From: Malacoraja senta
Taxonomy: Eukaryota
Assembly: GCA_038087875.1 (NCBI GenBank)
Contig: CM075988.1
Span: 24,492,001-24,556,000, forward strand
DNA: 64,000 bases
Direction: 5' to 3'
The notes beneath the pieces were generated by a model. It searched no databases. It saw only the letters and a program-made list of their open reading frames with translations, and was not told the DNA's origin. The translations under genes and the position numbers were made by a program. Below are positions 204 to 49,312 of this stretch, piece after piece; position 1 is the stretch's first letter; every line of letters begins with the position of its first letter.

Positions 204-836
204 CTAGTGGAAACATCCTCTCCACACCCACTCTATCCAGGCATTCTCGAGGTGTTTATCGTCATTTATTGTTCCTTAGCTGGCCTTGGAAATTGATCGC
301 GAGTACTCAGCTTGATTCGCTGCAGTTTATGTTGTGGTCGCACAGACCTGCCAGAGATTGAATGATTTGCAAGCTGGTCAATCAATGAAAATTACATCCT
401 CATTAATCGCCCATATTATGAACAACTGTAGATGCTGAGTTTCATTCCACTTCTGTCAAACTCAATTGAAATGATTTGTCATTCAGAAAACAATTGACGC
501 TCCTTGGGAAAGGGACGTAATCCCTCAAACCCAGAAACCAGTGACAAAAGGTGAGATAGATTAGGAAGTGGCAAGAAGCCTGCAGATTGCACAAGGAAAA
601 TTAATGGATCATGTTCGGCGAAATTATTTCCACGGAATGATTCCTTTTTCTGCCAGTCTTAGTCATTTGTTGTCTGTCTAGGTTCGAAGATGGAAGGAAC
701 TGCCATCCTTTCAGACGTGTTCAAAGGGTTCCAAAACACCACTTCTGATGGGATATGAATGAAAATACATCGTTGATGAACAGAAGGTTCTTCCAATCAG
801 CCTGACATTTGCAATTGTTGAACATTATCTGGACCT

Positions 837-1105
837 CCCCGTGGTCACCCCTGTCAACTGACCTCAGTCAGGCAAACGACAACAAACAGAGACAGCAGCA
901 GAATTAACAACGAACGAACAACAACAGCTTGCAGCCTTAATGCAACCTCAGTCGCCGCAGCTTGGCGCCAACCCGGAGCATGCACCCTTTTTAGGGCGGC
1001 CACCTACGGATGTCGAACCGGATGGCGTCATCCTGCTGCAGCTGAATGTAAGGATTCAGCTGGAGGGCGTTACATAACTTCTGCTGCCTCAAATGCAAGA
1101 AGAAG
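837..1105 (+). mobile_element. Short non-autonomous retroposon (family C) with (GAA)n tail and 5'-truncated HDV-like ribozyme
   Basis: Direct repeat AACATTATCTGGACCT at 821-836 and 1106-1121; tail CAAGAAGAAG; internal hairpin CAGCTGAAT-GTAAGG-ATTCAGCTG at 1039-1062. Confidence 0.8.
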
Positions 1106-1206
1106 AACATTATCTGGACCTTTTCCAAGTTCAGAATATTGTACATTATATCGGGGTAACCAAAACAGAGTGTGGTCCCCTGGATAGACACAAAATGCCG
1201 GAGTAA

Positions 1207-24749: not shown

Positions 24750-24802
24750 GGGGTGGGAAATTGCAACCTTCACGTGGTCCGCCCTGTTTCGACGAATGCA
24801 AT
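24750..24802 (+). ncRNA. Minimal HDV-like ribozyme fold
   Basis: P1 GGGGTGG/CCGCCCT, P2 ATTGCA/TGCAAT, P3 ACC/GGT, L3 TTCACGT, minimal P4 region with TTCG, J4/2 CGAA. Confidence 0.8.
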
Positions 24803-24895
24803 CAACCTGGCTGGCACAATCAAATAAGATCAAATAGAACAAGTTGTCCTACAACTTTAGGCTGTGCACGCCATACGCAAGAAGAAGAAGAAGAA
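24750..24895 (+). mobile_element. Short (GAA)n-tailed retroposon, family A
   Basis: Starts GGGGTGGG and ends CATACGCAAGAAGAAGAAGAAGAA; homologous to 46722-46860; no clear TSD. Confidence 0.85.
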
Positions 24896-46710: not shown

Positions 46711-46721
46711 TCTTTGGATTG

Positions 46722-46860
46722 CTTCTTCTTCTTGCGTATGGCGTGCACAGCCTAAAGTTGTAAGACAACTTGTTCTGTTTGATCTTCTGTTTGTGCACGC
46801 CAAGTTGATTGCATTCGTTGAAACAGGGTGGACCACGTGAAGGTTGCAATCTCCCACCCC
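46722..46860 (-). mobile_element. Short (GAA)n-tailed retroposon, family A, full length
   Basis: Perfect TSD TCTTTGGATTG(C) at 46711-46721 and 46861-46871. Confidence 0.9.
46807..46860 (-). ncRNA. Minimal HDV-like ribozyme fold
   Basis: GGGGTGG GA GATTGCA ACC TTCACGT GGT CCACCCT GTTTCAAC GAA TGCAATC; P1 (G-U at +1), P2 and P3 all pair. Confidence 0.85.
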
Positions 46861-47088: not shown

Positions 47089-49312
47089 CAGCGGTTCTTA
47101 ACCTGGGGGTCGTGACCCCCATGGGGGTTATTTGGGGGTTTTCTGGGGGTCATGAAGTGGTCATAAATAACATATCAATTTGTTGAGCCCATTTTTAGGA
47201 ACCTAACAAAGGTACATACCACACACAGTATTTTGTTTGCGTATGCGCGTATGTATACACACACACAAACTGTGTGTGTTGTGAAACATGTCTGCCAAGA
47301 ATCGCACGTCTAGTGAAGCATTTTTTTATTTTTTTATTTATCATTACACTTATGGGCGCCTTTCAAAGACTCTCAAGGACGCCTTGCAGATAAGCAGATT
47401 ACAAAACATATAAGCAGAATAAAAAATTAAAAAAATAGTAGGGACATCAACAACATCACAATGCACAAATTAAGGACAAAATTCATTCCAAAGGCACAAA
47501 AAAGAAAATCAGAAACACAATTTCTCATATTCGGCTTCACAAGCATTGTTCAAAAACCCGTGGTCAAGTCACAATGTGTTATCTGTGCCAAGGTTTTGAG
47601 CCATGAGAGCATGAAGTCCAGCAAACTGAAGATCCATTTGGAGTCTTGTCACAGCAACCTGGCGGGGAAGGGCGTGGACTATTTCAAACGAAAAGAAGCT
47701 GCACTCAAGGGTTCGACGGGTCACTGCGCTCATCAAAATGAAGCAGCGTTGGAGGCTTCATACCGGATTGCTTATCGAATTGCACAGACTAAGAAACCTC
47801 ACACCATCGGTGAAGAGCTTATCAAACCATGCCTTCTCGAAGCAGCGAAATTGGTGCTAGGGGAACAGCAAGTTCAGGCAGATTTCCCCTTCGAATAACA
47901 CAGTCAAAAGTCGAATCTCGGATATGAGTAATGATATTCTGCTGCAAGTAGTGAGCGTTGTGAAGAGCAGTCCAGTGAATTCACTGCAACTGGACGAGTC
48001 AACAGATGTTGCCTCATGTTCCCAACTGCTAGTCTACGTTCGTTACCTCGACGGAGAAGCCATGAAGGAGGAGTACCTGTTCTCGGAGCCATTGGCTACT
48101 ACCACTCGGGGAGAAGATGTGTTCTGAATGTTGGAAGCCTTCCTCATCAAACATGAGCTTGGCTGGGAACGACTTGTCGGGGTGTGTACAGATGGGGCAC
48201 CTTCCATAGTTGGATGCAGATCTGGCTTCAAAACTTTTGTGAACGATGTCGCTCCCCATGTCTCCTTCACCCACAGCATGATGCATCGCCATGCTTTAGC
48301 GATGAAGACTCTCCCTCCCGGTCTTCGAGAAGTGCTTTCAGATGTGGTGAAGATTATGAAACACATCCGAGGGAGCGCAACAAATGCAAGAATCTTCAAA
48401 GCGATGTGTGAAGAAATGGGCGCCGATTTCACTGTTCTGATATTCCACACAGAGGTGCGCTGGCTTTCGCGTGGTAACGTTCTCAATCGTGTGATTCAAC
48501 TTCGAGAGGAAATAGCACTGTTCTTGGAGGGAGGGTGTACTGAGAAGGAGAATCAGCTTCATGAAAAGATGCAGCATGAACTGTTCGTGATGAAGGTTCA
48601 CTTGGCTGACTTCAAGGATACTTCCTGATGCTACACACGGCTCGTGACAAAGAGGCAGCGTTCAGGAGGAAGATTCCTGAAGAGTCCAGGATGGTGGCAC
48701 GACTATCTTCCCTGAGATGACGACTCCCCTGGATGCTACACCAGATGCTTAATGCCACTTCCACGAGGAGATCTCAACCCACCTTCTGGCAATTAATGAA
48801 GCCATAGAACGTTACTTGCCCGGACTGGACGACCGCTCTCCGACCCTTTTCCATTGAAGACGGTGCCATCAGAGATACTGACGTGGTTGCAAAGGTCGAA
48901 TTTTACCGAATTCGTGAAGATGCGCAGCTCAAGAGTGACTTCATGGAACAAGAGCTTAGCCACGTTTTAGCTGAAAGTGAAGGACCGTCCTGTCCTTTTG
49001 AAGAGGGCCCTGACCCTATTGGACCAGTGCCCTTCAACCTATCACTGTGAGGCTGTATTCTCAACCATGGTAACTCTGAAAATGGAATAGGCTTGTGATC
49101 GACACTGGCATGAGGTGCTGTCTGTCGAGCATTCGTCCTCGTTTTGATCGCCTGATGGCTGCGAAGCAATTTCAGCCATCCCATTGATTGTGTATTAGCA
49201 GACATGTTTTAATAAATCAGGCTGGGTTTTTTTCAATTTTTGTTTCGGGGGTCACGGTACTGACCAAGAATATCTGATAGGGCCATGGGGCCAAAAAGGT
49301 TAAGAACCACTG
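47089..49312 (+). mobile_element. hAT transposon, Buster/Charlie type, both ends present
   Basis: TIRs CAGCGGTTCTTAACCT / AGGTTAAGAACCACTG; 8-bp TSD ATTTAAAT / AGTTAAAT with central TA. Confidence 0.92.
47520..49187 (+). pseudogene. Decayed hAT Buster-type transposase (ZBED5/SCAND3/GTF2IRD2-like)
   Basis: BED finger CVIC...[52 protein letters not shown] and terminal KQFQPSH*; several stops and frameshifts. Confidence 0.9.

Follow-up and report, generated by a model that had tools for sequence, protein, structure and literature searches.

An old Vingi-like LINE copy of Malacoraja senta, truncated at its 5' end, and the predicted HDV-like fold that heads its family

A short insert near the start of a 64,000-nucleotide stretch of Malacoraja senta DNA ('the window': positions 24,492,001 to 24,556,000 of contig CM075988.1, assembly GCA_038087875.1) is most probably an old copy of a Vingi-like LINE. 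On this reading, which we put at roughly 0.78, a 3.26-kb element is here reduced to its two ends and has also lost 15 bases from the start of a ribozyme-like head, the truncated end having likely been made by joining of cDNA to target through the shared bases GACCT. A first-pass annotation of the window drew attention to the copy for its truncation and for the few bases matched at its joint; of more weight is the family to which it belongs.

THE COPY IN THE WINDOW

Two 17-bp direct repeats flank an insert of 268 bp (Table 1). The 16-bp repeats reported earlier (821-836 and 1106-1121) are indeed present, and nowhere else in the window, and they reach one base further left, which takes the insert from the 269 bp first given to 268; the (GAA)n tail noted at its end is an AAG tail at 1097-1105. 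All the pieces of the fold that had been named are in place: ACC at 833-835, TCCCCGT at 836-842, GGT at 843-845, CACCCCT at 846-852, CTGAC-CTCA-GTCAG at 858-871, GCAAA at 872-876 and CGAC at 877-880. Two details need amending. P1 is separated from P4 not by a single G but by five bases, GTCAA (853-857), and target and element have in common not the four bases of ACCT but the five of GACCT. In addition the 3' strand of P2 extends beyond CGAC, to CGACAACA.

The 5' strands of both P1 and P2 are absent, as had been claimed, the first 15 bases of the element being missing. The best 5' partner for P1 in the upstream sequence (533-826) makes 5 of 7 pairs; partners for P2 with 6 of 7 pairs exist, but none adjoins P3. 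As it lacks both strands, the copy is predicted from the fold to be one that should not cleave. At gathering score there are no Rfam matches over the window, and a scan of the copy by E-value gave no ribozyme family either. The cytosine C873 stands at what we take, from HDV, to be the catalytic position.

Table 1. Features of the insert and of other parts of the window
Feature	Position	Strand	Remarks
Left target-site duplication, 17 bp	820..836	+	starts after TT, the family preference
GACCT, common to target and element positions 16-20	832..836	+	
P3 (ACC/GGT) and L3 (TCCCCGT) of HDV-like fold	833..845	+	
P1 3' strand	846..852	+	private G-to-C changes at 846 and 848; 5' partner absent
J1/4 (GT), CAA and P4 hairpin CTGAC-CTCA-GTCAG	853..871	+	G853 is the P1.1 partner
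J4/2 with cytosine C873, and P2 3' strand	872..884	+	P2 5' strand absent
Remaining 5' leader and first endonuclease codons (…LLQLN)	885..1053	+	long-element type, not N2
Internal deletion junction	1039..1062	+	about 3.0 kb gone; 9-bp perfect inverted repeat
3' end of long element	1060..1105	+	final codons with the stop at 1075-1077, then a short trailer and the AAG tail
Right target-site duplication, 17 bp	1105..1121	+	
Four related short tandem units	11550, 33439, 36455, 46016		22-27 bases; part of a dispersed repeat
Reverse transcriptase frame, 526 aa	17022..18602	-	presumably CR1/L2, from its look
Short family copy	24750..24890	+	minimal HDV-like head without P4; same AAG tail
Short family copy	about 46720..46860	-	minimal HDV-like head without P4; same AAG tail
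Two frames	47431..48628	+	taken by us, from their look, for a broken hAT-type transposase

THE FAMILY HEAD

The window copy is 84-93% identical to many other copies, which is more than chance would give; the DNA search of the 1.94-Gb genome from which these come scored 40 of 1156 candidates and yielded 41 matches. A pattern for the head containing GAGCCCT has 288 exact matches genome-wide; with the CACCCCT of the window it has one, the window itself. Ninety of the 288 loci make up a 5'-anchored set. Since membership of that set requires an intact core, a 3'-anchored set was also taken, comprising 90 of the 108 exact matches to the 3' junction of the short form N1 (see below), and 11 loci are common to the two.

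Column by column, conservation in the 5'-anchored copies is at background upstream of the first G, here G1, and rises to 80% right at that base, and 77 of the 90 start at base 1 or 2. The 3'-anchored copies are less uniform: 48 start at base 1 and 54 at bases 1-3, while the other 36 begin deeper in the element, an effect of internal variants in some cases. Just one of these 90 begins at the same base as the window copy, and the upstream sequence that the window copy lacks forms a 7-bp P1 and an 8-bp P2. As had been supposed, the window copy is a 5'-truncated member of a family that carries an HDV-like fold at its head.

In the full head P1 is GGGGCTC/GAGCCCT, P2 is TGTTGTCG/CGACAACA and P3 is ACC/GGT, with L3 TCCCCGT, P4 CTGAC/GTCAG and J4/2 GCGAA. 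The GTCG strand foreseen immediately before ACC is found in full-length copies. The start foreseen, GGGGGTG, is not: full copies begin GGGGCTC, and the prediction went astray because it was based on two G-to-C changes, at 846 and 848, that had arisen later.

Full-length heads fit a nested double pseudoknot with a 7-bp P1, P2, a 3-bp P3, P1.1 and P4. In ten heads from four families all 110 cells of P1, P3 and P1.1 pair, both sides have changed in 7 of the 11 pairs, none of 500 shuffles reaches the score, and controls slid along the sequence pair at 51-56%; as the rows are related families of this one genome and the structure was drawn from the same sequences, this support is strong but not independent. 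The single pair of P1.1 covaries from C-G to U-A in three of the ten rows, and P2 is perfect over 6-8 pairs in all seven heads examined. In HDV ribozymes G1 forms a wobble pair with U at the cleavage site, and J4/2 contains a cytosine; the wobble is present in 9 of 10 heads and the cytosine in 77 of 90 copies. One full-length copy matches the Rfam model HDV-F-prausnitzii (RF02682) over its whole length at 29.1 bits (E 0.001), which does not reach the gathering score of 44, and the CPEB3 model RF00622 is absent from the matches listed for the head of this family. We regard the head as likely to be a self-cutting HDV-like RNA, the sharp start at G1 being an observation and cleavage a prediction from the fold.

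THE PARENT ELEMENT AND ITS SHORT FORMS

Long relatives carry the head and tail of the window copy around endonuclease and reverse transcriptase frames, one of them (L177) spanning 3262 bases. All the long copies translated here are broken; read together with intact database relatives they give a layout of a single ORF with an APE endonuclease followed by RT. The nearest database proteins, of about 1000 aa with APE and RT, are 68% and 63% identical over two parts and bear no clade label. No RNase H match was found in the C-terminal 366 aa of the element, nor in the database proteins P0002 and P0007, and the domain was detected in the control, P0077. The parent is likely a Vingi-like non-LTR retrotransposon, an assignment made from domain layout and not from a tree holding a named Vingi sequence; in naming it we also leaned on motifs that we take to be those of Vingi. 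Full-length copies prefer TT followed by a purine, and their duplications are mostly of 11 bp (14 of 30) or 12 bp (9 of 30); in a count of 46 targets, T stands at -2 in 32 and a purine at the first base in 43.

Two consecutive Vingi pieces make up part of a multi-copy segment that is 95-99% identical between copies and is spread over dozens of unplaced contigs (L003, L006-L027, L029, L030; L172-L173). Many of its copies keep open an endonuclease frame of about 350 aa and have a head in which A replaces G1 as the first base, and two of them (L172-L173) lie 9.64 kb apart on contig C2310.

The window copy holds both ends of the long element with about 2990 bases missing between them, and so shows what marks a two-ended non-autonomous LINE: the ends of a parent, an internal deletion, a duplication and a tail. 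Loci with internal deletions represent independent events, each retaining some 115-260 bases at the 5' side and 30-75 at the 3' side. Many of their 5' breaks lie near the codons for LLQLN, though selection by the search may explain part of this. In a tally of 92 two-ended loci, which includes some duplicate loci, 60 are N1 (about 200 bases), 17 are N2 (about 300 bases) and 15 are other forms, some of these being decayed N1. Both N1 and N2 have multiplied, the N1 3' junction having 108 exact matches. Even with one mismatch allowed, the internal junction of the window copy has no second occurrence in the genome, and its form has not multiplied. Descent from the 300-base N2 form was considered and rejected, the window copy keeping the leader of the long element without the N2 replacement. 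Judged by its sequence, it is a one-off deletion form that belongs to neither of the common short subfamilies.

At the deletion junction six inserted bases (1054-1059) are the reverse complement of 1042-1047, for which the chance is about 0.014, and they complete a perfect 9-bp inverted repeat (1039-1062). Polymerase theta is known to carry out templated extension in cis (PMC4912351), and by analogy this fold-back insert likely had a polymerase theta-type origin.

AGE OF THE INSERTION

Two orthologous contigs from organisms B and C (X3 and X4) differ from the left flank at 27 and 24 of 421 letters respectively, hold about 54 extra bases, and then match 817-845 with 0 and 1 differences. They continue GAGTG…GCC…TGTCAAC, with the same truncated joint and with GAG, not CAC; at the CAC site these relatives also have four extra bases. 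Since they carry both the truncated joint and GAG, insertion and truncation predate the split, and CAC arose later in the window lineage. The site is filled in organism A also (X1, X2). No RNA run was among those listed, which speaks neither for nor against expression. No empty target site was seen among X1-X5, where the X5 contig ends before the site. The window copy is, on these sequence comparisons, old. As to its surroundings, the roughly 54 bases of the relatives are absent just left of the window duplication (817-820), and 11 bases at 775, present in X1 and relatives, are absent from the window and X2 and are likely polymorphic.

THE TRUNCATED JOINT

A five-base match at a joint has a chance of 0.0045 (0.45% of joints). 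Among other members of the family, 36 copies, truncated or oddly aligned, start at base 4 or later, and for 10 of them a duplication was found, the 26 without one being left out. The matches at those 10 joints are of 1, 0, 4, 2, 5, 1, 0, 1, 0 and 3 bases, where 0.65 bases on average would be expected by chance; for the summed length P is about 0.003. At least three bases match in 3 of these 10 automatically found truncated joints (chance 5% each; P about 0.011), and in 5 of 14 once four copies, picked by eye from the 5'-anchored set and two of them lacking only 2-3 bases, are added by hand (P about 0.0004); the window copy is left out of these counts. As matches make a duplication easier to detect, and 26 copies were dropped, the enrichment is inflated. 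Sixteen truncated long copies were read by eye as well; most are without a clear duplication, and none entered the counts. The earlier proposal, a 5' truncation resolved by microhomology, draws support from the enrichment of matches at truncated joints of the family and is probably right.

The length of the window duplication, 17 bp, is the chief difficulty. The duplications of the 10 truncated copies are of 7-12 bp and those of full-length copies mostly of 11-12, and 17 minus 5 is 12, a common length. This is just what would be expected if the same element had been truncated in the same way and joined bluntly, leaving a normal 12-bp duplication beside which GACCT happened to match the next bases of the target. 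Such a blunt joint is further favored by there being no other examined truncated copy with a duplication longer than 12 bp, and by a genome so rich in truncated copies that a reader will select the striking one. Against it, a 17-bp apparent duplication with a five-base match should arise by pure chance at only about 0.02% of joints (some 0.0002 per junction), other truncated copies show an excess of matches, and one of them, L236, also has a match of five bases. By our rough estimate joining through the match is several times likelier than chance, and we consider a blunt joint unlikely. Could the head instead have been lost from a full-length copy after it was inserted, by deletion or by conversion with an empty allele, perhaps along with the interior? 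In favor of this, the insertion is old, with 24-27 of 421 flanking letters changed, and a flank from which both the 54 bases and the 11 at 775 have gone looks deletion-prone. The truncated form was, however, already there in both of the orthologous contigs that reach the joint, and a plain deletion cannot reach target bases beyond the duplication, so that either an original 17-bp duplication or the same chance match would still be needed; later loss is quite unlikely.

As regards the separate short family that had been proposed, with a head GGGGGTG pairing with CACCCCT, the window copy does read CACCCCT, but the single exact match in 1.94 Gb is the window itself, the orthologues read GAG, and the internal junction is single-copy. 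A CACCCCT subfamily is refuted for this assembly by that single match, with room only for unassembled copies, and we give the proposal next to no credence.

For an old truncated and internally deleted Vingi-like copy, our preferred reading, the course of events was likely as follows. Copies of the family would be transcribed by read-through from host transcripts, and the 5' fold would cut the RNA just before G1, thereby setting the sharp start of most copies. The protein encoded by a full element would nick the target at TT/purine and, with priming on the AAG tail, reverse-transcribe the RNA; the insertions leave a duplication of 11-12 bp, as copies of the family show. In the case of the window copy, copying likely stopped 15-20 bases short of the end of the RNA and end joining used GACCT. 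The loss of 3.0 kb with its fold-back insert likely reflects template-switching end joining of the polymerase theta type, either during insertion or earlier, in a parent copy of which nothing else remains, with the change to CAC arising after insertion.

SISTER FAMILIES AND THE CPEB3 RIBOZYME

Heads with the same spacing are found in two further Vingi-like families (L183, L190 and L191; L181, L182, L184 and L196) and in the short family with copies at 24750 and 46860 of the window, for which no parent was found among 20 Vingi-like loci. In the second of the two, U-A replaces C-G at P1.1 and P3 is GCC/GGC. The first 16 bases of the head are tandemly repeated at L191:599-630, as a 5' template jump would give. 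E-value scans of the L191 and L181 heads matched no ribozyme family.

Another sister family (L290-L295 and L297; for example G000:C21:8958106-8958189, minus strand) resembles the CPEB3 ribozyme. With the CPEB3 model, RF00622, 59 candidates were scored, giving 51 matches, 39 of them over the cut-off of 35 and the best at 64.2 bits, and there were no matches in 14 control genomes. In five of the eight best loci the head is followed by an APE frame, with about 33% identity to P0002. What the matches show is likeness, not descent, and they concern this Vingi-like sister family, not that of the window.

A wider reading is that Vingi elements as a rule begin with an HDV-like ribozyme, that the ribozyme of mammalian CPEB3 is a relic of a Vingi insertion, and that the window copy records two polymerase theta-type joints of one insertion, with the match setting the second nick. 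It is built on the 7-9-3-7-3-7 head, with covarying stems, shared in this single genome by four Vingi-like families and the parentless short family, and on the score of one of these families, far over the CPEB3 cut-off; we hold it tentatively, at a little under even odds. The CPEB3-like sister family does make the origin of the CPEB3 ribozyme testable.

COMPARISON WITH KNOWN SYSTEMS

Microhomology at the truncated ends of LINEs is well known, and the event in the window is ordinary. Matches of this kind occur in about 80% of L1 truncations and in roughly half of the L2 copies of zebrafish, and 5'-truncated L1 and ZfL2-2 share with the window copy a short match between the end of the duplication and the element at the 5' joint; their truncated copies tend to short duplications, whereas that of the window is 5 bp longer than usual (PMC2912911, PMC2666801).

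Active HDV-like heads have been described on L1Tc, NARTc and R2 (PMC4035085, PMC6765202). The NARTc/L1Tc and RIME/ingi pairs of trypanosomes (Pr77/L1TcRz) belong to a sister clade whose short two-ended derivatives keep a ribozyme at base 1, with the P1, P2, P3, P1.1 and P4 layout of the family head described here; on the other side, the trypanosome heads have been shown to cleave, Pr77 is also a promoter and L1Tc has RNase H (PMC4035085, PMC6765202). R2 is likewise a LINE that begins with an HDV-like ribozyme, and it too has short internally deleted forms; polymerase theta microhomology joining has been reported for its cDNA (PMC13708176), but it has an RLE nuclease and a single rDNA target where the present family has APE and dispersed sites.

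For Vingi itself, a single ORF (PMC3894237) and a layout without RNase H (PMC13708176) are on record. RTE, Ingi, Vingi and R2 are named in PMC5786205 as sources of two-ended elements, and in its list of ribozymes, which covers six clades, Vingi is not among them. No paper in the literature covered by our search assigns a ribozyme to Vingi; self-cutting heads, reported for Ingi, RTE and R2, seem little described on Vingi-type elements. Vingi-1, with its native 5' UTR retained, is in use as a tool for gene insertion (PMC13708176), and a self-cutting Vingi head would bear on the processing of the RNAs of that tool. Non-autonomous Vingi derivatives with internal deletions are known from Vingi-1_EE (Kojima 2011, as cited in PMC5786205). 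Like the short forms here they join both ends of an element that has a single APE-RT ORF and lacks RNase H, and they show many deletion forms, a microsatellite tail and short duplications; the window copy differs from them in being a single deletion form that is 5'-truncated as well.
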